A stretch of DNA of 64,000 nt from Rhodopila sp. (GCA_025355085.1 JANXLQ010000095.1:229-64228); one strand, 5' to 3'; counted from the stretch's first letter, positions 24,419 to 49,189 are shown. The notes: generated from the letters alone by a model not told the origin. Program-made: numbers and translations.

Positions 24419-24833
24419 GGGCTGTGGGTAAAGCGGAGCCACCGCCGCTGACAAGGCCATATCTTGAGCGCATCGCGCGGCCTGTCGAGAAATTTTGCTA
24501 AAATAGGAAAAAAGGCTTGACCAAACACCCCAAATCGGACTATGCTTCGCTGTATGATCCGGGGTTTGCGAGCGACGCACCCACGGACTTGCCGCTTCGA
24601 CGGTTTTAGCAGATTTGGCGCCGCGTCAGTGATACGGGCGCTGGACACATTTATTCACTCTAAATGACAGTGATCCTATCAAAAAGTCAATTTTTTTCAG
24701 AGGTCGGACACGAGCCGATCTTCGAGGCTGGGCAGAAGAAGCACTTAAAGATACCGGTTATTATCCGGCTATTCATCATCGTCATCTCATAACAGAGTTA
24801 GAGGGTCTATCTAACGGCAACTACGATCGATTA

Positions 24834-26063
24834 ATGATCTTGATGCCGCCAGGGTCTGCCAAGTCAACCTATGCCTCGGTTATCTTTCCCGCGTGGTGGT
24901 TTTCACAGCATCCTCATTCTTCGGTCATCAGTGCATCGCATTCTTTGAGTCTGGCGACGCATTTTAGCCGCCGCCTGCGTGGGTTAATCGAGGAAAAGAA
25001 AAATTATCTCGGGTTTACCGTCGCAAAAAAGCAACGGGCTATCGATAGTTGGTCCACAAGCGATGGCAGCGATTACCTCGCAGTCGGCGTTCGCGGGGCT
25101 ATCACGGGCCGTAGAGCAGACCTGATCATAATAGACGATCCAATCCGGTCGCAGGCCGACGCCGAAAGTCCCCGGCAGCGGGAGCATGTCTGGGAGTGGT
25201 TCAAGTCGGACGTTACGACCCGCCTGAAGCCGCACGGCCGAGTGGTTTTGATTATGACGCGCTGGCACCCGGACGACCTTGGCGGACAATTGCTGGAACG
25301 GGCGAAGGCCGAATGGCGGGTCGTGCGTCTGCCGGCACTGGCTGAACCCGACGACCCCATCGGTCGCCCACCGGGTTCGGCTCTTTGGCCCGAGTGGGAG
25401 GATCGCGAGGCTTTGCTGCGAAAGCGGGAGCTTATCGGCGAACGAGCGTGGTCGGCGCTGTTTCAGCAAATACCGCTACCTGCGGGCGGGCGGCTCTTTC
25501 TGGTCGATCGCGTAGCGGTTGTCGAACCCGTTACTGCCATGGACAACTTAGTCCGTGCCTGGGATCTGGCGGCCACTAATTTGAATGGCCGGAATGATCC
25601 GGACTGGACGGTTGGTATCAAGCTGCGGCGCGACGACACGGGCCGATATCTGATTGTCGATGTGGTCCGCATCCGCGGAACGCCGCACGAGGTCGAGGCG
25701 CTTATTGTTACCACCGCCCAAAAGGACGGTGCCAAGGTTATCGTGGCTATTCCGGAAGATCCTGGCCAAGCCGGTAAAAGCCAAATGTCGTACCTGACGC
25801 GACAATTGGCGGGATTTCATGTGATTGCCGCACGGGAGACCGGTTCGAAAGCGACCAGGGCAATGCCGCTGGCATCCCAGGTGGAGGCCGGCAATGTTTC
25901 CATTGCGAGGGCCGGCTGGAACCGGGCGTTAATCGACGAAATGCGTGACTTTCCCTGGGGAAAAAAAGACGACCAGGTGGACGCTTTGGTCAGGGCGTTT
26001 ACCACCCTGACAACGCGGCCGCGCCCACCGAGTTCGATTTCCATGTCGTTCCTCAGCCGTTGA
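24834..26063 (+). CDS. terminase large subunit; N-terminal part in a different frame or lacking a start (see findings)
   Basis: P-loop LMILMPPGSAKST, Walker B-like LIIIDDP, and nuclease-half motifs (WDLA.., DDQVDA). The same frame is open back to 24633 without a start codon. Confidence 0.8.
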   Translation: MILMPPGSAKSTYASVIFPAWWFSQHPHSSVISASHSLSLATHFSRRLRGLIEEKKNYLGFTVAKKQRAIDSWSTSDGSDYLAVGVRGAITGRRADLIIIDDPIRSQADAESPRQREHVWEWFKSDVTTRLKPHGRVVLIMTRWHPDDLGGQLLERAKAEWRVVRLPALAEPDDPIGRPPGSALWPEWEDREALLRKRELIGERAWSALFQQIPLPAGGRLFLVDRVAVVEPVTAMDNLVRAWDLAATNLNGRNDPDWTVGIKLRRDDTGRYLIVDVVRIRGTPHEVEALIVTTAQKDGAKVIVAIPEDPGQAGKSQMSYLTRQLAGFHVIAARETGSKATRAMPLASQVEAGNVSIARAGWNRALIDEMRDFPWGKKDDQVDALVRAFTTLTTRPRPPSSISMSFLSR

Positions 26064-26082
26064 ATTCAAAGTTTGGAAATAT

Positions 26083-27507
26083 ATGTTCGATACTTTGTAC
26101 GATTTGATTCCGCGTGACAGTGACTACCCTGACAGAGTGCGAAAACTAACTATACTGAACCGCGTGCTGGATGGTACACTGTACGATACCCTCCCCTACC
26201 ATTTTCACGAGGAACGCACCGAGGCCGGCGAATACATTCCCCTTCGCCAACGGCGTCCCAGCGTCAGATATCCGCTGTGCCGCATTGTCGTGGAGGATAG
26301 TGTTTCACTGCTTTTTAGCGAAGGTCATTTTCCGACGATCGATAGTCCGGATCGGGCTGTGCGGGCGGCCTTCGCGAATATCGCGAAGGAAACACGACTG
26401 AATCTGACTATGACCGACGCCGCGATGCGCGGTGCCATCGGATCGGTTGCGCTGCTTTTGCGGGTTCTGCAGGGGCGGATATTCGTCGATGTACTCGACA
26501 CCATTTATCTGACGCCCACCTGGGATCCCCAGGCACCGGACACGCTTGCCCGAGTGGATGAGCGCTACAAGGTCTCTGGTGCCGATCTTCGCAGGAACGG
26601 TTACGACATCGACGATCCGGGCGGTCAATATTGGTTTGCCCGAAGTTGGGACACGGAAAGCGAGACCTGGTTTCTGCCGACCCCCATCGGCAGCCCGTTC
26701 CCACCGGCGATCGACAGCGCCCGTTCGGTTTCCCATAGGCTTGGCGCCGTTCCCATCGTGTGGATTCGCAATTTGCCCGGCCTGTCCACGACCGGCGACA
26801 TTGCCGACGGGGCTTGTACATTCTCTGCCGCCATGCATTCTCAGGTCGAGATAGACTATCAACTCAGTCAGTTGGGGCGGGGTTTGAAATACAGCAGCGA
26901 TCCTACGTTGCTGCTGAAGGACCCAGCCCTTCCAGACGGTGCGCTGATCAGGGGCGCTGGTAACGCACTCGTCGTTTCCGAAAAAGGCGATGCCCGGCTT
27001 TTAGAAATCGGTGGCACGGCTTCCGCCGCCGTGATCGAGTATGTGCGTACTTTGCGCGAATTGGCGTTGGAAAGCATCCACGGCAATCGTGCAAGCCCGG
27101 AGCGCGTAACTGCCGCGCATTCAGGCCGAGCGCTGGAGTTGTTGAATCAAGGGTTGATTTGGCTGGCTGACAATTTACGGACCAGTTACGGCGAATCCGG
27201 GCTGTTGCAGCTTACCCGGCTGATTGTTCGAGCATCGCAAGTCTATACTATTATGGTCTTCGGCCAAGAGATTGCGCCTTTGAGTCCTGTGGCCCCGATA
27301 AGTTTGAAGTGGCCGCGCTGGTATCCGACCACAGCGGATGACCGGCAGAAAGACGTCCAATCACTTACCACATTGGTTACCACGGGATGCATCAGTCGCG
27401 AGACCGCACTTAAAGTCATTGCAGGCTGTTATGACCTTGAATTTGTCGAAGATGGAATAACTTCGGCCACCCTTGACAATACATCACGAGATCAAAATGA
27501 TTCATGA
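26083..27507 (+). CDS. putative portal protein
   Basis: 474 aa ORF immediately after terL and before the scaffold and coat genes. Assigned by position and size only. Confidence 0.6.
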   Translation: MFDTLYDLIPRDSDYPDRVRKLTILNRVLDGTLYDTLPYHFHEERTEAGEYIPLRQRRPSVRYPLCRIVVEDSVSLLFSEGHFPTIDSPDRAVRAAFANIAKETRLNLTMTDAAMRGAIGSVALLLRVLQGRIFVDVLDTIYLTPTWDPQAPDTLARVDERYKVSGADLRRNGYDIDDPGGQYWFARSWDTESETWFLPTPIGSPFPPAIDSARSVSHRLGAVPIVWIRNLPGLSTTGDIADGACTFSAAMHSQVEIDYQLSQLGRGLKYSSDPTLLLKDPALPDGALIRGAGNALVVSEKGDARLLEIGGTASAAVIEYVRTLRELALESIHGNRASPERVTAAHSGRALELLNQGLIWLADNLRTSYGESGLLQLTRLIVRASQVYTIMVFGQEIAPLSPVAPISLKWPRWYPTTADDRQKDVQSLTTLVTTGCISRETALKVIAGCYDLEFVEDGITSATLDNTSRDQNDS

Positions 27508-27880
27508 ATCAACCGACGTAGAATTCACGCCGTCCGAAGGCGGGTCTGACGAGATCGCACAGTTGCGTTCCGACTTCCAGGCACGTCTCGTTGCTGCCGA
27601 TCTCCGCACCGAGGCCGTCAGGGCCGGTATCGTCGATCTCGATGGGTTGAAACTGATCGATATTTCTTCTGTGCGCCTGGGCGACGATGACAAAGTTGTC
27701 GGTGCCCGCAAGATCATTGACGAACTCCGGCGGAACAAACCCTGGCTGTTTCCGGGTGTCTCATCTTCCAGCCCGGCCCTGGCCCCCGCGTCTCAACCAG
27801 TGCGCCAGAAAACGGCACTTGAGATGTCCGACGAAGAATACATCGTGGCCCGCGCGGCGATAACCAAACGTCATTACTGA
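27497..27880 (+). CDS. putative scaffolding protein
   Basis: 127 aa, acidic and helical. DLDGLKLIDISSVRLGDDDKVVGARKIIDELRRNKPWLF resembles the GP20-type scaffold pattern. It lies between portal and coat. Confidence 0.5.
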   Translation: MIHESTDVEFTPSEGGSDEIAQLRSDFQARLVAADLRTEAVRAGIVDLDGLKLIDISSVRLGDDDKVVGARKIIDELRRNKPWLFPGVSSSSPALAPASQPVRQKTALEMSDEEYIVARAAITKRHY

Positions 27881-27926: not shown

Positions 27927-29249
27927 ATGGCCATCCAGAATTTTCCTGCCGCGCTTCAGCCGATCATCCAGGGCGGCTTTCTCGAACGAGAGTTCCAGCA
28001 GGCGCTGCGCTCCAAGCTCGGCTATCGGGCCTGTGCCGATCGGGTGGATGTCGCGGTGGGTATCGGTGAAACACTGACCAAGACCCGGGCCGGTCTTAAG
28101 CCCGCTGTGACTGTGCCGCTGGCACCGTCCGCGAACACAAATTTCGACAATGGATTGACGCCGACGACCTGGGGCGTCGAACAATATACGCTATCGATGA
28201 ACCTCTATGCCGCGACGACCGACCTGAACGTGGTCATCGAACGGGTCGCTATCGCGTCGCAATTTATTCAAAACGCCTATGTCAACGGCGAACAGGCCGC
28301 ACGCAGCCTGGATGAACTGGGCCGGAATGCCCTGTTCGCTTCCTATATGGGCGGTAACACGCGCGTTCGAACGACACTGGGCAGTGCGGCTCCGATCCTT
28401 GCTGTCGATGACGTCCGCGGATTTCAGATTGTTTTCGTCAACGGGGTGCAGCAGCCGGTTACCAGCAGCACACCGATGACGGTCACCATCGGTGCCAACG
28501 TCTATACGGTCGTTTCAGTTGCAGTCGATTCTGCCAATGTCTCCACCGCGCCCAATGGCCTGTCCGGCATTCTCACCCTTTCCGGTAACGTATCTGTATC
28601 GGACGGAACGGCGGGCAATACCGTGATCGCGGCGAATGGATCAACCATCGTGCGGCCGTCCCAGCGTGGCAATACATCGCTGATCACGGCATCCGACACG
28701 CTTACCATGGGTAACCTTCTGGACGCGGTTGCAAAGCTTCGCTTGAATGCAGTTCCGGAAATCGACGGCGCCTATAATTGTTATCTCGATCCAGTGTCCT
28801 CGCGCCAGTTGTTCGCCGATCCGGATTTCAAGCAGTTGTTCCAAGGAGCCACTTCGGCCAACCAGGTGTTCAAGAAGGGAATGACGAACGATTTTCTTGG
28901 CCTCCGGTTTGTCCCGACGACAGAGGCGTTTGTGCAGCCACATCCGACGCTGCCGGGGTTGATGGTTCGCCGTCCGGTGATTTGCGGCAAAGGCGCCCTG
29001 GTGGAGGGCGATTTCGCCGGCATGGCGGCAAGAGATATCGCCCCGGCCGATTCGATCGTCACGATGGTGGACGGAGTCGCCATGGTCACCCGTGAAGCGA
29101 TCGATCGCCTACAGCAGATCATTGCGCAGTCCTGGTATTGGATTGGCGGATTCTGTGCCCCATCCGACACGACAACGAATTCGACGACGGTCCCAACCGC
29201 AACGAACGCCACCTACAAGCGAGCGGTTATCCTGGAACACGTCGGCTAG
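27927..29249 (+). CDS. putative major capsid (coat) protein
   Basis: 440 aa ORF after the scaffold gene. A size comparable to coat proteins with an insertion domain. Assigned by position. Confidence 0.55.
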   Translation: MAIQNFPAALQPIIQGGFLEREFQQALRSKLGYRACADRVDVAVGIGETLTKTRAGLKPAVTVPLAPSANTNFDNGLTPTTWGVEQYTLSMNLYAATTDLNVVIERVAIASQFIQNAYVNGEQAARSLDELGRNALFASYMGGNTRVRTTLGSAAPILAVDDVRGFQIVFVNGVQQPVTSSTPMTVTIGANVYTVVSVAVDSANVSTAPNGLSGILTLSGNVSVSDGTAGNTVIAANGSTIVRPSQRGNTSLITASDTLTMGNLLDAVAKLRLNAVPEIDGAYNCYLDPVSSRQLFADPDFKQLFQGATSANQVFKKGMTNDFLGLRFVPTTEAFVQPHPTLPGLMVRRPVICGKGALVEGDFAGMAARDIAPADSIVTMVDGVAMVTREAIDRLQQIIAQSWYWIGGFCAPSDTTTNSTTVPTATNATYKRAVILEHVG

Positions 29250-29273: not shown

Positions 29274-29582
29274 ATGCCGCTAGGTTCGGTAAGCCCATTT
29301 CGTCCCACCGGTACGGTCAGCGTATCGGTGGGCACTGTCTCCGCGAATACGCCGTTATCAGGTGGTGGTGATTCGGTCGTCGTTACCAACAGCAGCAACT
29401 CCTTGGCGTATGTCCGATTCGGATCGGATCCCACCGTCGCGGCAACCACGGCGGACATGCCGATCCTGGCAACCAGCCGTCTGATCCTTGCGGTGAACAG
29501 TTTGATTACTTATGTGGCCGTCATCTCCCCTTCTGGAACCGGCCTAGTTCTGTTCAGCCGCGGCGATGGATCGTTCGTTTGA
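29274..29582 (+). CDS. hypothetical head-associated protein
   Basis: 102 aa beta-rich ORF downstream of the coat gene. No recognisable motif. Confidence 0.3.
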   Translation: MPLGSVSPFRPTGTVSVSVGTVSANTPLSGGGDSVVVTNSSNSLAYVRFGSDPTVAATTADMPILATSRLILAVNSLITYVAVISPSGTGLVLFSRGDGSFV

Positions 29583-29959
29583 GTCTGCTATCCGACGCCG
29601 AAAAGGTGGACATCCGTCGGTTTTGCGGATACCCGGCTTATGGAGCCGCCCCAGCCGGGATGCAATCGTGGCGCTTCTTTCAATCCTATGGATTGCTTGA
29701 ATTTCGCATCAACAATCTTTCAGACTCCGAAATTGCCATCACGCGCCGATATCTTGGGTCGCTGACATCTCTGGAGTTGGCGATTCCCGCAACCTCCGAA
29801 AATCTAGACACCGATCAGGCTTCGATGTGGACGCGGAACAAGGATGAACTGAGGGATCGCATGCGCCTGTTCAATGATTGGCGGCGCAGACTGTGCGGAT
29901 TCCTCGGAATTGCGGCAGGTCCGGACGTCGCAGGTGGCACCACGATGTTGGTTGTGTAA
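29579..29959 (+). CDS. hypothetical head-completion/connector protein
   Basis: 126 aa. TTGA start/stop overlap with the preceding ORF. Assigned by position only. Confidence 0.3.
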   Translation: MSLLSDAEKVDIRRFCGYPAYGAAPAGMQSWRFFQSYGLLEFRINNLSDSEIAITRRYLGSLTSLELAIPATSENLDTDQASMWTRNKDELRDRMRLFNDWRRRLCGFLGIAAGPDVAGGTTMLVV

Positions 29960-29962: not shown

Positions 29963-30607
29963 ATGAACGGCCTGAAGCTACAAGATCGCTTGTATTTGGG
30001 CTTGGGACGAGCCGCCCGGTATGCCGGGCGGTCTGCCGATGCTTTTCGTCCTAACGGCCCCTTCGCCCCTCTGGACCCGATAAATAGATTTTTAAGGTTG
30101 CCTGCGACGTTTGTGTCGGCAAAAGGCAACGAGGCACGGACGATCATTTTTGGGGAGGCGCTCTGCCAGGGTATCTTCGATGGCAGTTATACGCGCGTTG
30201 GTGACTACCTCGTTATGTCAACCGGAACTTTTTTCGTGGCGTCTCAATATCCCCTGCTGCCGATCCTATGCGTCCGCACTAACCGAACAATCTCCGTTTC
30301 TCGACCGAATATGCAAAGCGCCACCGCCACAAATCCTTATGGTGGTTACACGCCGGTCAATTCAACGGTTGTCATGACCGGATGGCCCGCCAGCGTTCTG
30401 GGAGAAAATCGTTCGAGTGCGTCGGACGCCAAACTTCCCGGCGATCAGGCGGTTCCATATTGGGCTGTACTTTTGCCGGCGCCTAAAGGGATTATATTAT
30501 CACCCGGAGACATTATCACCGACGATTTGGGCCGGACGGCCGTGATCTCGGGATCGGAATTAAGCGACCTGGGCTGGCGCATCGATGCCAAAATGGCGAC
30601 GACATAA
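29963..30607 (+). CDS. hypothetical neck/virion protein
   Basis: 214 aa ORF, 3-nt gap to the previous ORF. No motif recognised. Confidence 0.3.
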   Translation: MNGLKLQDRLYLGLGRAARYAGRSADAFRPNGPFAPLDPINRFLRLPATFVSAKGNEARTIIFGEALCQGIFDGSYTRVGDYLVMSTGTFFVASQYPLLPILCVRTNRTISVSRPNMQSATATNPYGGYTPVNSTVVMTGWPASVLGENRSSASDAKLPGDQAVPYWAVLLPAPKGIILSPGDIITDDLGRTAVISGSELSDLGWRIDAKMATT

Positions 30608-31417
30608 ATGGCCGATATTTCTGACGTCGAAAACGCATTGGCAGGCACAATAACATCGATACTATATCCCTCCGGTTCATCGCAATCCAGTATCGTTGGA
30701 GTGTTGTGCCGCGTTTATCGTGGCTGGCCCAATGCGGCAACACTGAATTCAGATTTAAGTGCCGCCGTGGTGAACGTAACGGTCGTTACCGATGGCGATA
30801 CGGGCCATGTTACCACCCGATATCTTCAGGAATGGCATACTAAAAGCGCCCAACCTGGAACGACAGTGAGTGCGGCCGCGACAACCATCACAATATCGGG
30901 GAACCCGGCCGCCGGCGATGTCGTTGGCGCATTGATCGACGGTATGACTTACGTCTATCGCATTAAGGGCCGGGATATGCCCGGTTCGATAGCTTCCAAT
31001 CTCTGTCATTTAATTCAGGCCGATCGGCTGGCAACCACACACGGTAACCGGTTATCCATTCCGGGTGCCGCCGCGATCACGGTTAGGGTAGTGCGCGATA
31101 GCTCCACATCCTTCGAAAGCCGCCGTCAAGAAAAAGATCTTCGGATCATATGTTGGTGCCCTAACCCGCCAGTTCGGGACGCTGTTGCTGCGGCGATCGA
31201 TTCTGCTATCGACCGAATAAGCTTTCTGCCGCTGGCTGACGACACGACTGCGCGCGTCATCTACCGGAACACGGCCAGCTATGACCAGGCGCAAAATGCG
31301 TTACTATATCGCCGGGATATTGTTTACACGATGGAATATCCCACCGTGACGAACATTCTGCAGCCGTCGTTGTTGTTCGGGGCCTCCGAGTTAAACGGCA
31401 ACATTATATATGGTTAG
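30608..31417 (+). CDS. hypothetical neck / tail-terminator-position protein
   Basis: 269 aa ORF starting directly at the previous stop (taaatg). Assigned by position only. Confidence 0.3.
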   Translation: MADISDVENALAGTITSILYPSGSSQSSIVGVLCRVYRGWPNAATLNSDLSAAVVNVTVVTDGDTGHVTTRYLQEWHTKSAQPGTTVSAAATTITISGNPAAGDVVGALIDGMTYVYRIKGRDMPGSIASNLCHLIQADRLATTHGNRLSIPGAAAITVRVVRDSSTSFESRRQEKDLRIICWCPNPPVRDAVAAAIDSAIDRISFLPLADDTTARVIYRNTASYDQAQNALLYRRDIVYTMEYPTVTNILQPSLLFGASELNGNIIYG

Positions 31418-31426: not shown

Positions 31427-31576
31427 ATGGTTCAACATCTGGTTGTTTTGAAACCGTTCCTCGATTTTGTGCGCGGCGACGTAATAACCGAGGCCGAGAA
31501 AATTCGCCAAATCCTCGATACGGAATACAGGAAATTCATTACTAAGGTCGCGCTGCCCAATGCGCCGAAAGGTTAG
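31427..31576 (+). CDS. small hypothetical protein (49 aa) upstream of the sheath gene
   Basis: My own translation is MVQHLVVLKPFLDFVRGDVITEAEKIRQILDTEYRKFITKVALPNAPKG. It fills the gap between ORFs and is below the track size cutoff. Confidence 0.3.
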   Translation: MVQHLVVLKPFLDFVRGDVITEAEKIRQILDTEYRKFITKVALPNAPKG

Positions 31577-35807: not shown

Positions 35808-35808
35808 A

Positions 35809-37596: not shown

Positions 37597-37598
37597 AT

Positions 37599-41703: not shown

Positions 41704-41802
41704 TAACAATTACTTCGCTACACAGTATTCTTCCAAGTAAAATTACCCATCATTAGGATCAGGCCCTTTTCGAGATCAGAGGGACCGGAGAATAAAATAT
41801 TC

Positions 41803-44800
41803 ATGCCCACGATTGACGAGCTTTCTCCCGCGACATCCGCGTCCGACACCGACGAATTTATTGTCACCCAATCCGGTATCGCTCGCAAGATTACACGCGC
41901 GCAGATATTGAATGGGGTTCAAACTCAATTGGCCGTGCCGGCAGGATCGTTGCTGGGCGGGGGGGGCACCGGGGTGGGTGCTCCGGTTGTCATAACGGTA
42001 GGTCAGAACCTCAGTTTCAATGGCTCCACTCTATCCGCCACCGCTGCGCCGTTCGTCGTTAATGCTCTGCCGCCGGGCAACGTTCCAGCGGCTGGCGATC
42101 TTATTTCGATGTCCCAGGCAGGAACCGGTGTAGCCGTAACGTATGGGCAACTCCTGAACGGGATCTCCGGTGTTCCAAACATCGACCTGTCGCAGGCCGT
42201 GGTGACACCAACCGGTTCCCATAGCGCCCAGACGCTGGGTCGATTGACCGCTAGTATGGTGCCGCTGTCGGGCGGCACTTTGACCGGTAGCTTAACGCTT
42301 GCGGGGGCGCCGGCCGCATCGGGGCAGGCAGCAAACAAGGCTTATGTAGATCAACAGCTTACCTCCAGGTTACCCCTTTCCGGGGGATCGATGTCCGGAA
42401 TGCTGACCCTTGCGGGATCACCTCAATTTCCCCTGGATTCAGCGACAAAAGCCTATGCCGACGCGATCGGCGCCAATCTTCTGGCAAATTCCGGAGGCTC
42501 CCTTTCGGGCCCTCTACTTCTCAGCGCGGACCCTACTGTTTCACTTCAGGCATCCACCAAACACTATTCTGATCTAAAACTGGCCCGCACCGGCGATACT
42601 TTATCAGGCATCCTGACCCTGGCCGGAGATCCTGTGGCGCCGTTCCAGGCAGCCACGAAAAATTACGTCGATGCACAGACTTCCGCGTACCTGCCTAAAA
42701 TCGGCGGGACTATGCTTGGAACACTGAGCCTGGCAACCGATCCTATCGCGAGTGCTCAGGCGGCAACCAAACAATACGTCGATCAGCGCATACTGCGTAC
42801 CGGCGACACGCTTACCGGCGCTCTCATTCTTGGGTCCGATCCTGTCGTGGCGCCACAGGCCTCCACAAAGAATTATGTGGACATCCAAACTGCCCGCTCG
42901 ATGATGCGCAACGGATCATCGATGACCGGTGCACTGTTGTTGACGTCCGATCCGGCCGTAGCACTGCAAGCAAGCACCAAACAATACGTCGATTTACGCC
43001 TAAGTCGAAACGGCGACACACTGACCGGGGCACTCTATCTTGCAGGCGACCCAACGGCTCCTTTGCAGGCGGCTACAAAACAATATATCGATACTCAATT
43101 CGCACATACGCTGACCGCCACTGGCGCGACATTTTCTGGTGCGGTTGTGCTGGCGGCAGATCCGGTCGCGGCAACGCAAGCGGCGACAAAGCAATATGTC
43201 GATGCCAGAATTTCGCGTAGCGGGGACACGCTGACTGGTTCCCTCATACTGGCGTCCGATCCGGTAGCAGCCTCCCAGGCCGCGACAAAGAGTTACGTCG
43301 ATATCCAATTTTCGTCCTCGTTGGCTCGTTCTGGCGGTAGCATGGTGGGGGCGCTGGCTCTCGCGGCGGACCCGAGCATTCCCGGGCAGGCCGCGACGAA
43401 ACGGTATGTGGATAGTCAGGTTGCCACTGCGTTGCCAAATACAGGCGGTTCGTTGACCGGCTTCTTGTCCCTTGCGACTGCACCAACGGCCGCGCCGCAC
43501 GCCGCCACGAAACAATACGTGGATGGGCAGGTGGCAACCGCATTGGCTCTGGCTGGAGGTGCCCTGACCGGAACGCTAACGCTTGCCGGCCCGCCCACCT
43601 TGCCTTTACAGGCAGCAACAAAGGCATACGTCGATGCCAATCCGGATCGCGCCGGGGTCATCAATATTACGATGCCCCCTTATAACGCAAAGCTCGATGG
43701 CATAACGGACGACACCGCTGCTTTCAAAGCCGCTTACCTGGCCGCTGCCGCCGGTTCCACGATCTACGTGCCTCATGGAACCACGGTGGTGCAACAACCA
43801 GGGACCTGGGGAATCGCCCTTACCAAACGGGTAAAGTGGAGTGTTGACGGCACGGTTCTATCCGATGGGACGCCTCTTGCCGCAGCCATTCCCACGGGGG
43901 GTGCCCCGGTTGCCTTCGTGTTGCCTGGCTTCGTTGCCGGCAATACGCCGTCGGGCCAGACCACGTCGCAAGGCGCGTCGCAGGCATCCGATTTTGCGGT
44001 CAACCAATCGTCCTACATCGTTAATCATAGCGGGGGAGCAAACGGGACGGTCATCACGAATGTCCGCGCCGATACGATTATCTACAGCAGCCCCGGCAAC
44101 TATGTTTGGGGAGGGCTGGACCGGTTGATCTGGGTGGGGACACAAACCCCCTCGGCCGCCACCCCGGCTCAACATGTGGGGCGCTACATCCAGACACTTC
44201 GGCAATCGGCAACGGCCGGATCTAATGGTCAGTTTCTACCGCAACCGCAACTCTGGGGTGCCTGTATCGAATACAGGGACACAACGGGGCAACCATCCAG
44301 CGTAACAAACGCATCCCTCACAATAGAGATGGACTGGTTTGGCAACGGGCTGGACGACGCCAACTCCCGGACCATCCAAAGCCTGGTGATCGGGCAACAC
44401 AACACAGCCGGCCCCCCCGTCGAGGTATCGAACATCATTGGGGTCTATCTTAGCGCGGGATCAGCCGGAAGCGCGAAAACAGTATTCGGCATCGGCGTCC
44501 CGTTTTCAAATGCGGTATTAGACTCTACTTACGCCCAGGCAATCAACAACGCGCCCGTTATTAAAATGTCGGCGGGGCAGGCGATCGCTTTTGAGGGAAC
44601 CAACAGCAACCGGCTGGCATATGACACTCCGTCTAATACACTGTGGTGGCATCAGGGTTCCTTATCTTATCCCGTCGGCAAGGGTATTTCGGTCGGCTGG
44701 GGGCAAGTATATTCAAGCTCCGTCACCATTCCAAATTACATATCGGGGCAAATCATTTTCCTGGTCGGCTCATCCGATTTTACCGTGACGTTGCCCGCCG

Positions 44801-45186
44801 CTAACACCGTTGCGGCCGGAACCGGATTCACATTCTCAGCAATCGGAAACTGTACAGTACATATCGTCCCGCACGGCAGTGACGAGATCCAATCCGGGCC
44901 AATTGTTCTCCACATCAACGACCGCTACCATATCATTTCGGATGGCGGCACATTTTGGCATGAGCTTTTTTGGACGAACACTGTTTCACCTCGGTTTTTG
45001 GGTCCAATCGTCTTGCCCTCCTATGCAGTGGGGGCGCTTCCAACGGGCGTAACAGCAGGCGCGAAGGCTTTCGCATCCAACGGAAGAAAGCCGGGAGAAG
45101 GGGCTGGTGCAGGAACTGGAGTCGAAGCCTTCTTCGATGGTCAGAGATGGATTTCTTCTTGTAGCGGCACCTCCGCCGCGTCATAG
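41803..45186 (+). CDS. large tail fibre/tailspike: repeat shaft plus pectate-lyase-like beta-helix domain
   Basis: 1127 aa. 13 copies of an ATKxYVD..(L)SGG(T)LTG.L.LA.DP repeat, then INITMPPYNAKLDGITDDTAAFKAAYLAAAAGSTIYVPHGT, the typical start of a right-handed beta-helix glycanase domain. Confidence 0.7.
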   Translation: MPTIDELSPATSASDTDEFIVTQSGIARKITRAQILNGVQTQLAVPAGSLLGGGGTGVGAPVVITVGQNLSFNGSTLSATAAPFVVNALPPGNVPAAGDLISMSQAGTGVAVTYGQLLNGISGVPNIDLSQAVVTPTGSHSAQTLGRLTASMVPLSGGTLTGSLTLAGAPAASGQAANKAYVDQQLTSRLPLSGGSMSGMLTLAGSPQFPLDSATKAYADAIGANLLANSGGSLSGPLLLSADPTVSLQASTKHYSDLKLARTGDTLSGILTLAGDPVAPFQAATKNYVDAQTSAYLPKIGGTMLGTLSLATDPIASAQAATKQYVDQRILRTGDTLTGALILGSDPVVAPQASTKNYVDIQTARSMMRNGSSMTGALLLTSDPAVALQASTKQYVDLRLSRNGDTLTGALYLAGDPTAPLQAATKQYIDTQFAHTLTATGATFSGAVVLAADPVAATQAATKQYVDARISRSGDTLTGSLILASDPVAASQAATKSYVDIQFSSSLARSGGSMVGALALAADPSIPGQAATKRYVDSQVATALPNTGGSLTGFLSLATAPTAAPHAATKQYVDGQVATALALAGGALTGTLTLAGPPTLPLQAATKAYVDANPDRAGVINITMPPYNAKLDGITDDTAAFKAAYLAAAAGSTIYVPHGTTVVQQPGTWGIALTKRVKWSVDGTVLSDGTPLAAAIPTGGAPVAFVLPGFVAGNTPSGQTTSQGASQASDFAVNQSSYIVNHSGGANGTVITNVRADTIIYSSPGNYVWGGLDRLIWVGTQTPSAATPAQHVGRYIQTLRQSATAGSNGQFLPQPQLWGACIEYRDTTGQPSSVTNASLTIEMDWFGNGLDDANSRTIQSLVIGQHNTAGPPVEVSNIIGVYLSAGSAGSAKTVFGIGVPFSNAVLDSTYAQAINNAPVIKMSAGQAIAFEGTNSNRLAYDTPSNTLWWHQGSLSYPVGKGISVGWGQVYSSSVTIPNYISGQIIFLVGSSDFTVTLPAANTVAAGTGFTFSAIGNCTVHIVPHGSDEIQSGPIVLHINDRYHIISDGGTFWHELFWTNTVSPRFLGPIVLPSYAVGALPTGVTAGAKAFASNGRKPGEGAGAGTGVEAFFDGQRWISSCSGTSAAS
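42262..43638 (+). repeat. 13 tandem coding repeats, period about 33-37 aa, in the fibre shaft
   Basis: The (A/S)TKxY(V/A/S)D motif recurs at residues ~178, 214, 251, 284, 321, 353, 391, 424, 461, 494, 531, 568 and 605. The copies are diverged at the DNA level. Confidence 0.8.
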
Positions 45187-45230
45187 CGGGATTACCGTCA
45201 TTGCGCCATCTTTTTGATTTGAGAGCATAA

Positions 45231-47096
45231 ATGCCAACTATTTCCCAACTGCCGGCGGCGAGTCCTGTCTCGGCAGCCGATGAGGTTCCGATCAGTCAGG
45301 CCGGCACAGCCCGAGCGACATCGGTTGGGGCACTGCTCGCCTCAATGCAACCTGCTATTATTGTGAAATCCCCATCTCTACTTGGAAGGACAAGTGTTGG
45401 GTCAGGGGGGCCGGAACAGGTCCATGTGGGCTTGGGCATGACGATATCAGGCGGAACGTTGGTTGCGGATGGGTTAGATCATGCGGCATTCCCGGCGATA
45501 CCAAATTTCACCGCAGGGTCCGATTTGGTGATTTCCAACCATGGCCATCCGATGCTCATGCCGGCATCCTTGCTGCGCGGACTATTCTCGGCGGGTCCGA
45601 ACGTCACCATCGATTCGAACGGCGTTATATCCGCGACGGCGGCGATTTCGACCGGCGGGACTGCCACTGCGGTAAGTTCCATAGGCGCACTGCCGGTCCT
45701 TATGTCCATGGCGTCGCAGGATCTGGTTGCTGTCAATCATGCTGGTTCGGACCGCGCAATCACCTACAGTAATCTGCTTGGCGGGGTGACAATCGATCAG
45801 GCCCAGGCTGCGGGGGCGGCAGGTGACACCGACACCATCTGGGTCGCACAAGGCAGCAATGTCATGACCGGTCAATCTTTTGGCGCAATATGGATTTGGA
45901 TAGCCGGCAAACTTCCAACCTATAAATCCCAGATCGTCGAAATTACAACCAACACGACACTTGATACGACAGTCCATAATGGGCGAATGCTCATTTGCAG
46001 CCAGCCCGTCACACTGACCTCCCTCACCAATAACATGGGAAGCGGGTTTTGTTGTACCGTCATCAATGCAAGTTCGGGAAACATCAATCTAAGCGCCGGC
46101 TTCATAAGCTCCAATGGCAGCTATCTTTTGGCGCCTTGGCAATCCGCGGCCCTGTCTTGTGTTACCTATTCAGGCGGAACGATTGCCTTTGCGGCCATGC
46201 CCGGGGTGAATTCGGTCACCTCGGCACCCGGCCAGGTGATCGGGCTCTCCGGTTCGAATACAACGTCCACCACAATCACCGTGTCTTGGCAGATACCGTC
46301 GAACGGCGGTGCCGTCACGTCCTACATCGTTCATTTTCGTCCAACCGGGTCAACAATTTGGACCAGCAGCGCACCGGTTATCAGTGCAACAACATATCCA
46401 ATTGCTGCTCTGCAAGCCTCCACAAGCTATGATATTTTTGTCGAAGCGCAGAATGCGAGTGGTCTAGGGGCCGCTTCCGCGGTTGTCGCCGTCGTGACGA
46501 TGAGCGCCGCATCGGCGGTACCTTTACAGATCAGCGGACTTACCGCGACACCGATTTCCAGCAGTATCGTTCAGCTAACTTGGTCCGCCCAGACCGGGGC
46601 GGCCGCAGCTACAAGCTTTACCGCCCAATATCGGGTGACTGGCTCCTCCGTTTGGGCATCTGTCACGGCTATCACGGGTGCCGTGCAAACCATTTCCGGG
46701 CTACAACCCTCCACAAGCTACGACTTCTCAGTGATTGGCATCAATTCGGCTGGTGCGGGTCCGGCATCGCCAACCATTACGACTGCCACGCCAGGTGCGT
46801 CGGGTTCGGTGAACTCGATTACCTGGAACGTCGCGCCCAGCGGGAGCTATATCCACGCAAGCGGGGCCATTGGGATCAATGCCCATGTTTCGCCAGCGAC
46901 ATCGCCAGTCCAATTTGGCTTTTCACTTTCATCCACGACACCGCCAACCAGTTGGACTACGGCTCAGCTTGTCAATACCGATCTCTGGGGTGCCTATGTG
47001 GCAACCCCAGCAACTGCGGGAGCGTGGTTCGCGTGGGCGGAAGGACTCGACGGCAGCGCTCCAACGGTCAGCCCCAGCTCCTTTGTGGTGCAATAG
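45231..47096 (+). CDS. second fibre / receptor-binding protein with two fibronectin type III domains
   Basis: The N-terminus MPTISQLPAASPVSAADEVPISQAG is paralogous to the 41803 N-terminus. FN3 units are TITVSWQIPSNGGAVTSYIVHFRPTGS..STSYDIFVEAQNASGLG and VQLTWSAQ..FTAQYRVTGSS..STSYDFSVIGINSAGAG. Confidence 0.6.
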   Translation: MPTISQLPAASPVSAADEVPISQAGTARATSVGALLASMQPAIIVKSPSLLGRTSVGSGGPEQVHVGLGMTISGGTLVADGLDHAAFPAIPNFTAGSDLVISNHGHPMLMPASLLRGLFSAGPNVTIDSNGVISATAAISTGGTATAVSSIGALPVLMSMASQDLVAVNHAGSDRAITYSNLLGGVTIDQAQAAGAAGDTDTIWVAQGSNVMTGQSFGAIWIWIAGKLPTYKSQIVEITTNTTLDTTVHNGRMLICSQPVTLTSLTNNMGSGFCCTVINASSGNINLSAGFISSNGSYLLAPWQSAALSCVTYSGGTIAFAAMPGVNSVTSAPGQVIGLSGSNTTSTTITVSWQIPSNGGAVTSYIVHFRPTGSTIWTSSAPVISATTYPIAALQASTSYDIFVEAQNASGLGAASAVVAVVTMSAASAVPLQISGLTATPISSSIVQLTWSAQTGAAAATSFTAQYRVTGSSVWASVTAITGAVQTISGLQPSTSYDFSVIGINSAGAGPASPTITTATPGASGSVNSITWNVAPSGSYIHASGAIGINAHVSPATSPVQFGFSLSSTTPPTSWTTAQLVNTDLWGAYVATPATAGAWFAWAEGLDGSAPTVSPSSFVVQ

Positions 47097-47099
47097 ATA

Positions 47100-49172
47100 A
47101 TGAGCCTTGTGTTCGTCCGGCCCGGTCACCCCATGGGGGTTGGCGGGAATTTTCTGGCACTTTACCAGCCCCTTACAACTGGGGCCACTTTGCCCGGGAC
47201 AGGGCAATCGCTGATCCAGGCCGTTTCCGGGACATCGGGCTGGTGGGACGCCAGTACTCCAGACGGTCTTCTCGGGCCGGGAAGCACGACCGCATCGGTG
47301 TGGAACGCGCCGGGTAGTGCGCTGATCGATCTGTCCGGAAACGGTCACAATCTTGTCCCGCTTCTTAGCCCGGCAAGTTCAAACCTGCCCCGGGGATCGC
47401 CGCATCTGTCGGGACTACTTGGCGGCGCGGGATACCCTGTGGGGTCTGCCGGTTTGCTGCAGCCGGCATTGGATCCCGCAGGTGGATGGCAATTGCCCGG
47501 ATCGACACCAAACGCCACGACGAGTTGGACATGGTATCTGGTTTGGTCGCGCCCCAACTGGCGGCAGGGTACCAGCTTCGACGCCAATCCGATCACTCTG
47601 CTCACGATGGGCTCCCGCGCGATCCTACAGGTGGACAGCAAGGGCGGCTCCAACAGGCTTGTGCTCTTTCCCGGTCCCGGCCAGGTCGTCGTTAATTCAA
47701 CCATGGCGCGGCGTCACACGCACTCCATCATCATTCGTTATTCACCGATATCGGGTGCCGGCCTCTGGCTCGATAACGTCCGTGTTGCAGAATCGATACA
47801 CTGGGCGCCAGCGCCCCTGTCCGGCCCGGTCGTTATATTGCACGATGGCACGTCGCTCGGCGCGGCCCAATGTTGGCTGCACGAGGCTGCGGAATGGAAC
47901 CGAGCACTGTCGGATGCGGAGGTCGCGTTGGTCGCGAGCTATGCGCAGCGTTGGGTTCGCGGGGCTCGCAAAGGGATATACTTCATCGTCAACGGACAGT
48001 CGAATGCCATCAACTATACTTTAAACGACGGCGCCGCCGCGCTGCTGGCGCGGGGCGTGGCCTGGCATCTGGGTGCATTGGCTTACAATGTATTGGCCAC
48101 CACCGGAAACGCAATGAATTTCACGATGCAGAGCGGCCACGGCATCTATGCGGGGGCAAGTTCGGGCTATCCAGGCAGTTTTGTAATGGACCCGGGAAAC
48201 GGATCAAATCCTGCGGGTTGGTCCTTGGGTGCGGACGGGCTGGCGGTGCAACAGGCCGTGGCCGGTCTTCCCGCCGAGGATGTAACGGATATCTGCGCGA
48301 TTATCTGGCCGTGGAACGAAACCGATAGTCTTCGTCAATACAACGAGGCCGCCACCTTTCAGGCCGCTGCACTTCGCTATTTGTCCCTGCTTCGCGCCAT
48401 GATCGGGGATACGAGCAATCGTATTCCACTGGTCTGGTGGAACGCCATACCGTACGGGTCCGCCGATGGGATCACGATGCACCGGCAAATCGTTCACGAC
48501 ATCGCATCGAACTCCGCGACAAACGTTGTCATCGGCAATCCTCAAACCAGTGACAGCAATCCTCGCGGTTCATCCTGGAACCCGACAACCGGCATTGCGA
48601 CCGGCGGAGACTCCGCACACCGAGACATCGCCGACAACCAGAGGTTTGCGATGCTGGCGGCCCCGGTCGTTGCCCGAACGCTTCTGGCCGGCAACTATGG
48701 AGACTCAATATCGGCCATACCCGATGCTGTACCGAAAGTCGGCGGCCCGTTCATCACACATGTCTATAGACAATCCAGCACCATATTGATTGTCACCGTC
48801 GTTCACGATGGCGGAAATGATCTAAGAGTGCCGCTGCAAGCCGCAGCCGGTCTCGGCTTCGCCGTGATGGATGGAGGCACCCCGGGTAGTGACGGACCAA
48901 TCGTCTCCGCGATTACCTGTCAACGCCTGGATGGCACTCATCTACAAATCGTTTTGGATAGCGCGCTGCAACACGCATCCGGTGCATGCCAATTGTTTTA
49001 CCCCTTTGGTTCGGTGCAAATTGGGCGCGGCAATGCGGTGACCGACAACTTCTCGGCAATGACCATGCCGACCGGCTGGAATATCCACAGCGACCTCGGA
49101 ACAAGTTGGAACCTCGACTGCCCGCTTGCTGCAACCTTCTCAGGGATACCCTTATCGGATTCGCCGACCTGA
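47100..49172 (+). CDS. LamG-like plus SGNH/sialate-O-acetylesterase-like protein (putative virion-associated glycan esterase)
   Basis: GIYFIVNGQSNAINY (GQSN nucleophile block) and GGDSAHRD (DxxH block). The N-terminal ~270 aa is lectin/LamG-like (weak call). Confidence 0.5.
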   Translation: MSLVFVRPGHPMGVGGNFLALYQPLTTGATLPGTGQSLIQAVSGTSGWWDASTPDGLLGPGSTTASVWNAPGSALIDLSGNGHNLVPLLSPASSNLPRGSPHLSGLLGGAGYPVGSAGLLQPALDPAGGWQLPGSTPNATTSWTWYLVWSRPNWRQGTSFDANPITLLTMGSRAILQVDSKGGSNRLVLFPGPGQVVVNSTMARRHTHSIIIRYSPISGAGLWLDNVRVAESIHWAPAPLSGPVVILHDGTSLGAAQCWLHEAAEWNRALSDAEVALVASYAQRWVRGARKGIYFIVNGQSNAINYTLNDGAAALLARGVAWHLGALAYNVLATTGNAMNFTMQSGHGIYAGASSGYPGSFVMDPGNGSNPAGWSLGADGLAVQQAVAGLPAEDVTDICAIIWPWNETDSLRQYNEAATFQAAALRYLSLLRAMIGDTSNRIPLVWWNAIPYGSADGITMHRQIVHDIASNSATNVVIGNPQTSDSNPRGSSWNPTTGIATGGDSAHRDIADNQRFAMLAAPVVARTLLAGNYGDSISAIPDAVPKVGGPFITHVYRQSSTILIVTVVHDGGNDLRVPLQAAAGLGFAVMDGGTPGSDGPIVSAITCQRLDGTHLQIVLDSALQHASGACQLFYPFGSVQIGRGNAVTDNFSAMTMPTGWNIHSDLGTSWNLDCPLAATFSGIPLSDSPT

Positions 49173-49189
49173 CCCGGCGTGGGGTCAGG
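49168..49189 (+). terminator. Hairpin at the end of the cassette
   Basis: cctgaccc-ggcgtg-gggtcagg overlaps the TGA at 49170-49172 and is followed by a T-containing tail (gcgtctttcacttt). Confidence 0.5.

Follow-up and report, generated by a model that had tools for sequence, protein, structure and literature searches.

A head and contractile-tail gene cassette inherited at the tgt locus of Acetobacteraceae is a strong candidate for a contractile-tailed relative of gene transfer agents

Introduction

Gene transfer agents (GTAs) and related viriforms, including RcGTA, BaGTA and BhGTA/VSH-1, are encoded by chromosome-fixed, phage-derived head-and-tail gene clusters that lack integration and replication functions, are inherited vertically under purifying selection and co-diverge with host genes. 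RcGTA is siphovirus-like, with lysis functions encoded outside the cluster, and a small capacity is a classic GTA criterion. By definition, GTA particles are made under host regulation, package essentially random host DNA in a head too small for their own genes, and transfer it to recipients. PBSX of Bacillus, a ≈25-28 kb cluster of head and contractile-tail genes conserved within its lineage, likewise cannot propagate, and keeps its own repressor, terS and holin/endolysin genes. R-type tailocins and extracellular contractile injection systems share a contractile sheath and tube on a gpV/W/J/I-type baseplate and are devoid of capsid, portal, scaffold and terminase genes; the absence of capsid, portal and terminase genes is an established feature of the described R-type tailocins. 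BaGTA and BhGTA particles have been described with non-contractile tails (Kogay et al. 2022, PMC9662315).

Among phages, Raharianne (Ralstonia) and phiKX1 (Komagataeibacter) are temperate myoviruses with genomes of 46-53 kb that carry terS, lysis, replication and recombination genes and an integrase or transposase. The integrase-less Acetobacter 'phage' phiAO1 (LC644971), whose 34-kb record has interspersed host genes, yields mitomycin-induced contractile particles with a 43-nm head and a 47-nm tail (PMC8566455). Here we analyze a 64-kb stretch of Rhodopila sp. DNA (64,000 nucleotides, hereafter the window) and compare its head and contractile-tail gene cassette with these systems.

Results

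Gene content and genomic setting

We find that the cassette spans 24.6-49.2 kb of the window (24.5 kb) and comprises ≈27 genes, all on the + strand in PHROG and Pfam scans, which encode TerL, portal, scaffold, coat, neck, sheath, tube, chaperone, a tape-measure derivative, baseplate and fibres. The same-strand structural block proposed in the initial annotation is thus borne out, and the HMM searches that it called for identify TerL, portal, scaffold, major head protein, sheath, baseplate and fibres; its count of 25 ORFs rises to ≈27, one addition being a 49-aa ORF. The features are as follows.

24517-24546, + strand: sigma-70-like promoter, TTGACC, 18 nt, TATGCT (consensus scan)
24678-26063, + strand: large terminase TerL (phrog_38 at 6e-100; Terminase_6N/6C)
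26083-27507, + strand: portal protein (phrog_145; 52% identical to Raharianne gp25)
27473-27880, + strand: scaffolding protein, first ATG at 27497 (weak phrog_194 match)
27927-29249, + strand: major capsid (coat) protein (phrog_1357; DUF4043 in source databases)
29274-29582, 29579-29959, 29963-30607 and 30608-31417, + strand: head-completion/neck genes g5-g8 (phrog_14539, phrog_14605 and phrog_13532, at 1e-39 to 1e-58)
31427-31576, + strand: 49-aa ORF, also called in orthologous loci
31582-33144, + strand: tail sheath (phrog_23 at 8e-46)
33156-33584, + strand: tail tube (phrog_12993 at 3e-40)
33581-34098, + strand: tail assembly chaperone, programmed -1 frameshift (slippery heptamer GGGAAAC at 33916-33922)
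34148-35020, + strand: tape-measure derivative, 290 aa, with conserved ends and a hypervariable middle
35073-39782, + strand: Mu/P2-type baseplate module (phrog_21362, 52, 6142, 975, 6 and 26379)
from 35073, + strand: g14 and g15, first in the baseplate module; one single protein in Raharianne (gp42)
35995-37032, + strand: gpD-like hub
37075-37596, + strand: gpV spike
37599-37979, + strand: gpW-like protein
37976-39109, + strand: gpJ
39099-39782, + strand: gpI
39810-49172, + strand: fibre and receptor-binding module, five proteins
39810-41063, + strand: Gly-rich fibre
41215-41703, + strand: Gp77-like adaptor
41803-45186, + strand: 1127-aa repeat fibre with a weak pectate-lyase-like segment
45231-47096, + strand: protein with two fn3 domains
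47100-49172, + strand: 690-aa protein, predicted ConA-like lectin fold
49168-49189, + strand: 8-bp GC-rich hairpin, possible terminator

Both flanks are core genes, murJ, trpS, rsmI, queG, queF and tgt on the left and a TPP enzyme gene, cdd, recA and flagellar export genes on the right. The cassette has a GC content of 56.3%, compared to 62.0% in the left flank and 60.0% in the right, a deficit of 3-6 points that is common to the whole lineage. PHROG and Pfam scans match no integrase, repressor, replication, terS or lysis family among the window's cassette genes, and with NCBIfam included they reveal no genes for autonomous replication, integration or lysogeny, as in GTAs; the modules that adjoin the structural genes of an intact temperate myovirus (integrase/transposase, immunity, replication, terS, lysis) are absent here. 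The window contains no tRNA and no Rfam match, and the two cassette ends have no repeat of ≥9 nt in common, whether direct or inverted. On all of these points, the core-gene flanks, the lower-GC block, the missing modules and the lack of a tRNA target or convincing flanking direct repeats, the initial annotation stands. It was also right that a prohead protease is absent, but this is not a loss, since the related true phages lack one too: Raharianne, phiKX1 and the cassette all have a scaffold gene and no annotated protease.

The cassette is colinear with Raharianne and phiKX1 from the portal to the first fibre, with protein identities of 28-61% and 22-53%, respectively. It differs from both in its type of TerL, in a 290-aa tape-measure derivative and in the absence of all non-structural modules. 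phiAO1 comes from the same bacterial family, and shares with the cassette the Gp77-like adaptor and part of the large fibre, but its coat (DUF2184) and tail genes are different and not orthologous.

Distribution, descent and selection

Coat relatives of 83-95% identity fall into more than 120 clusters, and only one of these departs from a length of 440 aa; across the Acetobacteraceae they are 74-95% identical and nearly all of this length. A coat relative is encoded by 330 stretches in a species-representative genome collection. The best 80 of these, 74-89% identical, represent at least 80 Acetobacteraceae species genomes, with labels that are almost all Acetobacteraceae, Rhodopila or unclassified proteobacteria and with Rhodopila globiformis DSM 161 and Acidisphaera rubrifaciens as cultured carriers. 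No genome occurs twice among these 80 loci, which fits one copy per genome.

Synteny at tgt, which had been suggested as a check, is found in 22 species-level loci among the best 80: these share the left context murJ-trpS-rsmI-queG-queF-tgt followed by terL (tgt-type loci). In all four tgt-type genomes checked, the right end runs from the last cassette gene through (TPP enzyme) cdd and recA to flagellar genes, and nearly every cassette gene has a single full-length match in tgt-type loci. Overall, we count at least five chromosomal contexts for the cassette. Its first gene is terL in every one, and outside the tgt context the genes upstream of it are ordinary cellular ones. No integrase, transposase, att repeat or replication gene is present at or beside any examined copy.

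Synonymous sites are saturated among the tgt-type loci (pS 0.7-0.8), and yet dN/dS across the cassette is 0.04-0.15, compared to 0.06-0.09 in the flanks. Against the closest species it is 0.02-0.18, except for the poorly alignable tape-measure derivative at 0.39. Conspecific relatives (97% nucleotide identity) have no stops or frameshifts in the cassette, and within-species pN/pS is 0.03 for the coat, 0.05 for the sheath, 0 for the tube and 0.15 for terL. The dN/dS well below 1 that the initial annotation proposed as a test thus holds for each gene, both between distant loci and within the species. Distances in the cassette track those in the flanks (Mantel r=0.83, p=1e-4; most nearest neighbours coincide), with flanking genes physically linked to the cassette as host markers, so that this co-divergence shows long residence at the locus and not congruence with the whole genome. 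Vertical inheritance and purifying selection, as known from GTAs, characterize the cassette as measured against these linked flanks.

We find no close relatives inside a complete prophage, which the initial annotation had named as evidence for a plain remnant, in IMG/VR, by tblastn or in the other insertion contexts. Of 512 relatives in IMG/VR, none of the best 80 exceeds 28 kb, and the longer contigs place the coat gene ≈3 kb from one end. When the non-structural ORFs of Raharianne and phiKX1 are all searched by tblastn against 168 related loci, nothing matches. A lysis cassette is kept in a sister lineage; a search with its GH108 endolysin gives no match on a tgt-type chromosome in the top 120. 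The absence of lysis functions from the cluster is a trait that this lineage has in common with RcGTA. One metagenome contig apparently keeps only the last cassette gene and an endolysin, and thus losses of the cassette do occur.

Cassette boundaries

The promoter is preceded by an A-tract (AGGAAAAAAGG) and followed by a variable leader, and its motif, TAGGAAAAAAGGCTTGACCAAAC, occurs once in the window and is kept in ≈19 of 21 tgt-type loci. It carries neither a CtrA box nor a LexA box, the only LexA box being a perfect one at nearby recA; the cassette differs in these respects from GTAs and from SOS-induced PBSX, respectively. There is no ORF between promoter and terL, and no receiver-domain gene beside terL in the window, whereas a divergent receiver-domain gene adjoins terL in the sister lineage. 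At the 3' end, the hairpin that had been placed directly after the last ORF is present but shares bases with the last stop codon. Folding of the 98 nt around it gives z = -3.4; no T-run follows, and a terminator scan is negative.

Terminase and head genes

The conserved coding sequence of TerL begins at an ATC codon at 24678, while the first ATG is at 24834; the 52 intervening in-frame codons are conserved coding sequence with no canonical start codon. In these codons pN/pS is 0.36 in frame, compared to 1.2-1.8 out of frame. The terL frame, read initially as broken, is therefore open, and the start, cited as a sign of decay, is common to the whole lineage: a canonical start for the conserved N-terminus is missing in the window and in several relatives, which points to a lineage-wide feature rather than decay. 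In the window's own lineage this segment has acquired three non-synonymous and no synonymous changes, and since a canonical start is also missing, TerL may be poorly made or N-terminally truncated there. TerL carries Walker A, Walker B-like and nuclease-like motif strings, and the nearest phage TerL is that of phiAO1 (45% identity).

The coat, portal and terL genes rank with the most constrained in the cassette. Coat, the most conserved gene of all (dN/dS 0.03-0.045), shares the lowest values with sheath and tube (0.04-0.05), and the portal has a value of 0.06. The coat protein is 61% identical to that of Raharianne and is 440 aa long, compared to 442 aa in a 46-kb phage; since the two lengths are equivalent, nothing about the coat points to a reduced head, and capacity may be no lower than the size of the cluster. 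The scaffold gene occupies the position of Raharianne gp26, with a weak Phage_scaffold match in one orthologue (L088), and the neck genes are colinear with Raharianne gp31-33.

Tail, baseplate and fibres

The frameshifted chaperone of the initial annotation is upheld, but not the ORF at 33771-34040 given as its extension: the true -1 extension runs from the heptamer at 33916-33922 to 34098. Its peptide is conserved in 70 related loci, and the heptamer GGGAAAC is found in 56 of 69 loci.

The tape-measure derivative aligns across loci in a ≈45-aa C-terminal stretch and a short N-terminal motif, which flank a hypervariable, disordered middle rich in S, P, R and A. On visual comparison, the C-terminal motif looks similar to the one in gp41, the 636-aa tape measure of Raharianne (742 aa in phiKX1). 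The ORF is open in nearly all loci, at 290-336 aa in tgt-type loci, with no stops and a pN/pS of 0.35 within species. Its odd form had also been taken as decay, and these data argue instead for a form shared by the whole lineage.

Baseplate orthologues match Phage_base_V, Baseplate_J and UCP028438. The fibre genes diverge more than the core genes; homologues of the 690-aa protein are 675-695 aa long and 55-80% identical, and its AlphaFold2 model (pLDDT 65) resembles lectin and receptor-binding folds, with a weak match to a phage tailspike as well.

Discussion

The cassette is probably a domesticated derivative of a Raharianne/phiKX1-type myovirus, inherited vertically in the Acetobacteraceae and selected as a unit for a complete particle. 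Vertical inheritance and an intactness kept by selection across many Acetobacteraceae species mark it as a strong candidate for a GTA relative with a contractile tail, of a type not yet described. It differs from the known GTAs in its independent myovirus origin, contractile tail and Mu/P2-type baseplate, in the absence of a TerS gene from the locus and in a coat of full-size-phage length. Judged by gene content, it is not an RcGTA-type element (Rhodogtaviriformidae, with siphovirus-like g1-g15 homologues that include the small terminase g1), because a sheath, tube and Mu/P2-type baseplate are present and no ORF lies between promoter and terL.

Of the two branches offered initially, a retained particle locus or a recently decayed prophage, only the former survives. 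Neutral decay of a prophage inactivated only recently and stripped of its other modules would explain the GC deficit, the terL N-terminus without a canonical start codon, the short and odd tape measure, the missing lysis genes and terS, and the contig that apparently lacks head and tail genes. The GC deficit, terL start and tape-measure form, however, are common to the lineage, and the genes are intact at one locus in 22 species despite saturated synonymous sites, with dN/dS of 0.04-0.15, within-species pN/pS down to 0-0.05 and no stops or frameshifts; at such divergence, neutral decay would have wrecked ≈27 ORFs many times over. Given synteny at tgt, low dN/dS, intact ORFs and no complete-phage relatives, we reject this explanation as having next to no probability. 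It is only slightly less improbable that the contractile tail alone serves as a bacteriocin, with vestigial head genes. The Mu/P2-type baseplate, the several fibre or lectin-like proteins and the faster divergence of the fibre genes would suit such a weapon, but the cassette has all four of the capsid, portal, scaffold and terminase genes that tailocins lack, coat constraint matches that of sheath and tube, and scaffold and neck genes are likewise kept. Because head genes are among the most constrained of the cassette, the tailocin half of the original 'GTA-like or tailocin-like' proposal is not supported, while the GTA-like half is consistent with the data.

A selfish, horizontally spreading module of structural genes, reliant on a helper or on functions supplied from elsewhere, would account for the multiple insertion contexts, always starting at terL, for the persistent GC deficit, for the sister lineage with its own lysis cassette and adjacent receiver-domain gene, and for the classification of the cassette as viral by IMG/VR pipelines. 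We consider this unlikely: mobility and replication genes and att repeats are missing at and beside every examined copy, cassette and flanks co-diverge in the tgt-type group with most nearest neighbours in agreement, and the best 80 loci fit one copy each. A more serious contender, though still doubtful, is a killing particle of the PBSX type, a DNA-filled contractile bacteriocin that packages host DNA with no productive delivery. PBSX has the same architecture, a head and contractile-tail cluster kept by its lineage (cf. PMC8347963), and like the cassette it is conserved and does not propagate, with packaging of host DNA expected by analogy; the elaborate, fast-evolving fibre and lectin module and the mitomycin C induction of related phiAO1 particles point the same way. 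The cassette nevertheless belongs to an unrelated host phylum, has unrelated genes and lacks in the window the repressor, terS and lysis genes of PBSX, a lysis cassette being present only in the sister lineage, and its promoter has no LexA box even though nearby recA has a perfect one. The sequence holds nothing to tell killing from transfer.

A domesticated, DNA-packaging contractile particle, GTA- or PBSX-like, is the best reading of the locus. The integrase-less phiAO1 element, found in this bacterial family and giving mitomycin-induced contractile particles, sets a precedent. Following transcription from the conserved promoter upstream of terL, scaffold, coat and portal would build a procapsid with no protease, apparently just as in the parental phage lineage, and TerL would fill the head without a locus-encoded TerS. 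The cargo would most likely be host DNA, as there is no specificity subunit. Neck proteins would connect the head to a sheath-and-tube tail assembled on the Mu/P2-type baseplate with the aid of the -1 frameshift chaperone and the tape-measure derivative, and fibres with lectin-like or depolymerase-like domains would bind surface glycans. Because it encodes nothing for replication, integration or lysogeny, and in this lineage nothing for lysis either, the cassette cannot multiply as a virus, and would therefore work like a GTA or a PBSX-type particle. Gene content, synteny, vertical descent and purifying selection are demonstrated by the analysis; by inference, particles would be produced, would package DNA and would benefit the host through gene transfer or killing.

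In favour of this reading, the assembly machinery is kept, in that the -1 frameshift site is conserved together with its extension and the TerL motif strings are present.

A head and contractile-tail gene set within housekeeping DNA

We find in the cassette a head and contractile-tail gene cluster that the Acetobacteraceae inherit vertically and that selection maintains; its working would resemble that of a GTA or of PBSX-type particles. About 27 genes make up an unbroken plus-strand series at ~24.6-49.2 kb of the window, with names from PHROG and Pfam scans.

Features of the cassette (genes on the plus strand)
24517-24546: sigma-70-like promoter (TTGACC, 18 nt, TATGCT) with an upstream A-tract
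First ATG at 24834: TerL (phrog_38 at 6e-100; Terminase_6N/6C)
Portal and scaffold; 27927-29249: major head protein (coat)
Four head-completion/neck proteins, including g8 at 30608-31417
31427-31576: 49-aa ORF
Sheath
Tube position: 142-aa protein (phrog_12993, a family without annotated function)
34148-35020: tape-measure derivative
Baseplate proteins of the gpD, gpV, gpW, gpJ and gpI types (baseplate start, g14, at 35073)
Glycine-rich fibre and Gp77-like fibre adaptor
1127-aa repeat fibre containing a weak pectate-lyase-like segment
Protein with two fn3 domains
47100-49172: 690-aa protein, last gene, no family match
49168-49189: GC-rich hairpin overlapping the last stop codon

The 49-aa ORF was absent from the initial annotation, which also listed a prohead protease among the missing genes; the related true phages likewise have none annotated. 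The initial annotation spoke of fibre or glycan-acting proteins, and glycan-acting is plausible for the 690-aa protein, with the model supporting folds of the binding type alone: an AlphaFold model of moderate quality (pLDDT 65, pTM 0.63) matches concanavalin-like lectin and receptor-binding folds in structure comparison and, weakly over its full length, a phage tailspike. PDB sequence searches with TerL, the 1127-aa fibre and the 690-aa protein return nothing significant.

Housekeeping genes make up both flanks: mnmG, mutS, glnD, gpsA, murJ, trpS, rsmI, queG, queF and tgt to the left, and genes for a TPP enzyme, cdd, recA and flagellar export to the right. The window contains no detectable tRNA gene and no match to an Rfam family, and att sites can be rejected, the two cassette ends having no repeat of 9 nt or longer in common. 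The GC content of the cassette is 56.3%, compared with 62.0% and 60.0% for the flanks; this deficit persists, at a mean of 3.5 points, across 20 tgt-type loci (relatives in which the cassette adjoins tgt, as in the window) and is therefore no mark of recent arrival. Given that synonymous sites are saturated between species, the deficit is maintained and is not a residue of recent acquisition.

Synteny, selection and vertical descent

For the coat protein there are over 120 clusters at 83-95% identity; with one exception they are exactly 440 aa long, and they are assigned, where the sources give a name, to Rhodopila sp. An exact-sequence lookup finds no record identical to the window's protein. 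A scan of one genome per GTDB species reveals 330 stretches encoding a coat relative, the best 80 of which are 74-89% identical. Nearly all of these 80 carry the label Acetobacteraceae, Rhodopila or unclassified proteobacteria; among them are two cultured strains, Rhodopila globiformis DSM 161 and Acidisphaera rubrifaciens HS-AP3. With all window proteins as tblastn queries, a single gene order is seen throughout from terL to gpJ.

The initial annotation left two branches, a recently decayed prophage or a host-retained particle locus, and named synteny at tgt and dN/dS well below 1 as checks. The left context of the window (murJ, trpS, rsmI, queG, queF, tgt, terL) recurs in 22 genomes, and in the four tgt-type genomes checked the right end reads last gene, optional TPP enzyme, cdd, recA, flagellar genes. 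Essentially every gene is represented by one full-length match in the tgt-type group. Between tgt-type species, with synonymous sites saturated in cassette and flanks alike (pS 0.7-0.8), cassette dN/dS ranges from 0.04 to 0.15, with coat at 0.045, sheath at 0.043, tube at 0.045, portal at 0.059 and terL at 0.066, and flank dN/dS (trpS, rsmI, queG, queF, tgt) from 0.06 to 0.09. Comparison with the closest other species (loci L088 and L089) gives 0.02-0.18 for the cassette, excepting the poorly alignable tape-measure derivative at 0.39. Three conspecific contigs at 97% nucleotide identity (pS 0.03-0.13) afford an unsaturated, within-species comparison: they contain no stop or frame-breaking indel. 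Here pN/pS is 0 for tube, 0.03 for both coat and gpV, 0.05 for sheath, 0.08 for portal and 0.15 for terL; it climbs to 0.35-0.5 in the tape-measure derivative, g8, g14 and gpW, and spans 0.02-0.21 in the flanks. A Mantel test (r=0.83, p=1e-4) shows that amino-acid distances of cassette and flank genes are correlated, and most loci have the same nearest neighbour in both.

These genes, intact across the syntenic loci, together with the low dN/dS and pN/pS, the co-divergence and the persistent GC deficit, exclude a recently decayed remnant, and it is the host-retained branch that stands, now with retention under selection and vertical descent; its GTA- or PBSX-like working would follow by inference. 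A tail-only, tailocin function is excluded because the head genes are the most constrained, and identification as an RcGTA-type element or as an intact prophage is likewise rejected. The cassette has the genomic and evolutionary features of a viriform, and particles, random packaging and transfer would be predicted of it.

Public gene calls in the long-read metagenome contigs L002 and L003 give a portal of 359 aa and sheaths of 462 and 288 aa. Despite such shortened calls, tblastn matches are near full-length in nearly all tgt-type loci, and the calls may reflect long-read indel errors rather than real decay.

Elsewhere the cassette occupies at least four further contexts, always with terL first and with ordinary cellular genes as neighbours. 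One group of 25 genomes has, next to terL, a divergently transcribed gene for a single-domain response regulator; further upstream come a DUF6065 protein, a regulator that on inspection of its sequence is SARP-type and, in a subgroup only, DnaQ; other contexts feature a MacAB-type ABC transporter, MlaD/PqiA, phenol hydroxylase plus esterase, or a Zn-dependent alcohol dehydrogenase. This amounts to at least five unrelated neighbourhoods across Acetobacteraceae lineages (loci L020, L021, L024 and L065, the 25-locus group, and the window), and no integrase or transposase lies beside the cassette in any of them. A Tgt-based check of site occupancy in metagenomes yields one close relative with upstream DNA, which is occupied by the cassette; more distant Tgt loci are without it, but synteny is likewise absent there.

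Relation to temperate myoviruses and phage-like contigs

The nearest true temperate myoviruses, Raharianne of Ralstonia and phiKX1 of Komagataeibacter, are colinear with the cassette from portal to first fibre (Raharianne: coat 61%, sheath 54%, portal 52% identity; phiKX1: coat 51%). Unlike the cassette, both are complete 46-53-kb phages with an integrase or transposase, terS, tape measures of 636-742 aa, and genes for lysis, replication and recombination. tblastn with all their non-structural ORFs against 168 related loci finds nothing at E 1e-6 or better, and megablast of the cassette against GenBank phages finds no match. TerL is of a type different from that of these two phages; its nearest phage relative, at 45% identity, is that of the Acetobacter element phiAO1.

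A survey of acetic acid bacteria described mitomycin-induced myovirus-like particles, including those of the integrase-less phiAO1, which have a 43-nm head and a 47-nm tail; in the 34-kb phiAO1 record host genes are interspersed (PMC8566455). What phiAO1 has in common with the cassette is limited to TerL, the Gp77-like adaptor and a portion of the large fibre. We note that the 34.1-kb phiAO1 record (LC644971.1, our locus L252) is without an integrase and places sorbosone dehydrogenase, peroxiredoxin, SOD, catalase and MutT among the structural genes, and that 43-nm heads look too small for 34 kb; phiAO1 could be a further domesticated or GTA-like element within the Acetobacteraceae. It shows that particles of such a kind are made in Acetobacteraceae, while itself not being this cassette.

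Relatives are found in 512 IMG/VR contigs; the best 80 of these are 76-87% identical and all at most 28 kb long, and the longer among them have the coat gene ~3 kb from one end, so that the provirus calls coincide with the cassette. A 2025 Sphagnum virome study reported phage-like contigs common to all samples that align to Acetobacteraceae genomes, with flanking metabolic genes and gpV/W/J motifs, and suggested degraded prophages (PMC12142844); these contigs may be this cassette. Our literature search found no paper describing it. A paper on viriform classification describes the tails of BaGTA and BhGTA as non-contractile (PMC9662315).

An unusual terminase start and tape measure

The terL frame, previously taken to be broken, is not: upstream of the first ATG at 24834, 52 in-frame codons beginning at 24678 are conserved coding sequence, with pN/pS of 0.36 in frame versus 1.2-1.8 out of frame and with invariant Leu positions encoded by up to six different codons. 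No ATG, GTG or TTG occurs in frame within these codons of the window (24678-24833). Outside the tgt group, an ATG is present at most loci ~62 codons ahead of the Walker A region; this ATG is gone from tgt-type loci, often with a stop just upstream. Some close relatives (L088, L002) have GTG or TTG starts; other close relatives and the window have no such start. Codon -52, where conservation begins, is Ile (ATC or ATT) in 17 of 21 loci. A leader ORF or frameshift feeding the N-terminus can be rejected, as the tgt-type loci show no conservation of any ORF, ATG or slippery site upstream. This selected N-terminus, devoid of a start codon and in itself a mechanistic puzzle, suggests non-canonical initiation, the most economical reading of the sequence, or some unknown mechanism. 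The same kind of segment is seen in loci L003-L005, L023, L089, L253 and L254. In the window's own lineage it has accumulated three non-synonymous and no synonymous changes and has 65% likeness to the consensus, compared with 84% for the TerL body; constraint on it may be relaxed there.

The frameshifted chaperone described initially holds up as a frameshift, with its product corrected to a -1 frame entered at GGGAAAC (33916-33922) and ending at 34098. Conservation of the extension peptide covers 70 related loci, and 56 of 69 loci carry the heptamer. At the tape-measure position, the ORF is open in nearly all loci, at 290-336 aa in tgt-type loci and up to ~530 aa elsewhere. Its C-terminal ~45 aa are strongly conserved and by eye resemble the Raharianne tape-measure C-terminus, and non-tgt loci also keep a phage-like N-terminal motif (MIEAYEIG...). 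The middle is S/P/R/A-rich, low in complexity, unalignable even between related species and presumably disordered; phage-like ends around a hypervariable middle are also seen at this position in loci L055, L039, L078 and L066. The derivative evolves fast within species (pN/pS 0.35) with no interruption, and because the frameshift chaperone is conserved it probably still functions in tail assembly. Any consequence for tail length is speculation, and a tape measure of conserved ends and disordered middle is a further mechanistic puzzle.

Possible function and significance

A more far-reaching joint reading, which we put forward tentatively and think somewhat less probable than its negation, would make the cassette the founder of a new viriform family with a domestication of its own, and the first GTA-like particle to have a contractile tail, fixed in a large part of the Acetobacteraceae. 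It would package host DNA without TerS, its tape-measure helical core would have been replaced by a fast-evolving disordered linker, and its terminase would be made from a non-canonical start, perhaps throttling production. Few cases are known to us in which a phage was independently domesticated into a head-full particle (RcGTA, BaGTA, VSH-1, Dd1, VTA, PBSX-like), and the Acetobacteraceae include abundant bacteria of peat, soil and acid environments as well as vinegar bacteria. If true, a family-wide, selection-maintained myovirus-type cluster would add a new lineage and a new morphotype to domesticated particles, would bear on gene flow or interference competition in Acetobacteraceae communities, and would explain the recurrence of such "viral" contigs in every Sphagnum metagenome (PMC12142844) and in IMG/VR (512 contigs). 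Cultured carriers, R. globiformis DSM 161 and A. rubrifaciens HS-AP3, make the hypothesis directly testable.

Promoter, candidate regulator and release genes

The sigma-70-like promoter is unique in the window and conserved in ~19 of 21 tgt-type loci. Its leader folds no better than shuffled sequence (z = -0.4) and has no Rfam match. No LexA or CtrA box lies near this promoter, which speaks against SOS or CtrA control; the nearby recA has a perfect alphaproteobacterial LexA box (GTTC-N7-GTTC, 52585-52599), and the flagellar region has two adjacent CtrA-type boxes (TTAA-N7-TTAA, 56019-56057; 0.1 expected by chance). The receiver gene of the 25-genome group is a candidate host-type regulator of the cassette, with no equivalent in the window; examples, on the minus strand and often with a small lipoprotein-like ORF, are L055:5309-5914, L078:5442-5984 and L041:5811-6389.

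In this sister group, genes for an 86-aa membrane protein and a GH108 endolysin, with three small ORFs, come directly after the last cassette gene (L085:12105-13677) and look like a lysis cassette. The TPP enzyme or cdd occupies this position in the tgt-type lineage; the window has no homologue of the putative lysis genes, and the top 120 GH108 matches include none elsewhere on tgt-type chromosomes. On a 120,880-bp contig of JGI 3300050821, a DUF6065 gene and a 160-aa gene on the minus strand lie upstream of a homologue of the 690-aa last gene and the GH108 endolysin beside it; dnaE2/imuB follow, and the locus has no head or tail genes. This arrangement is either a cassette deletion derivative or a sign that lysis genes and last gene form one unit.
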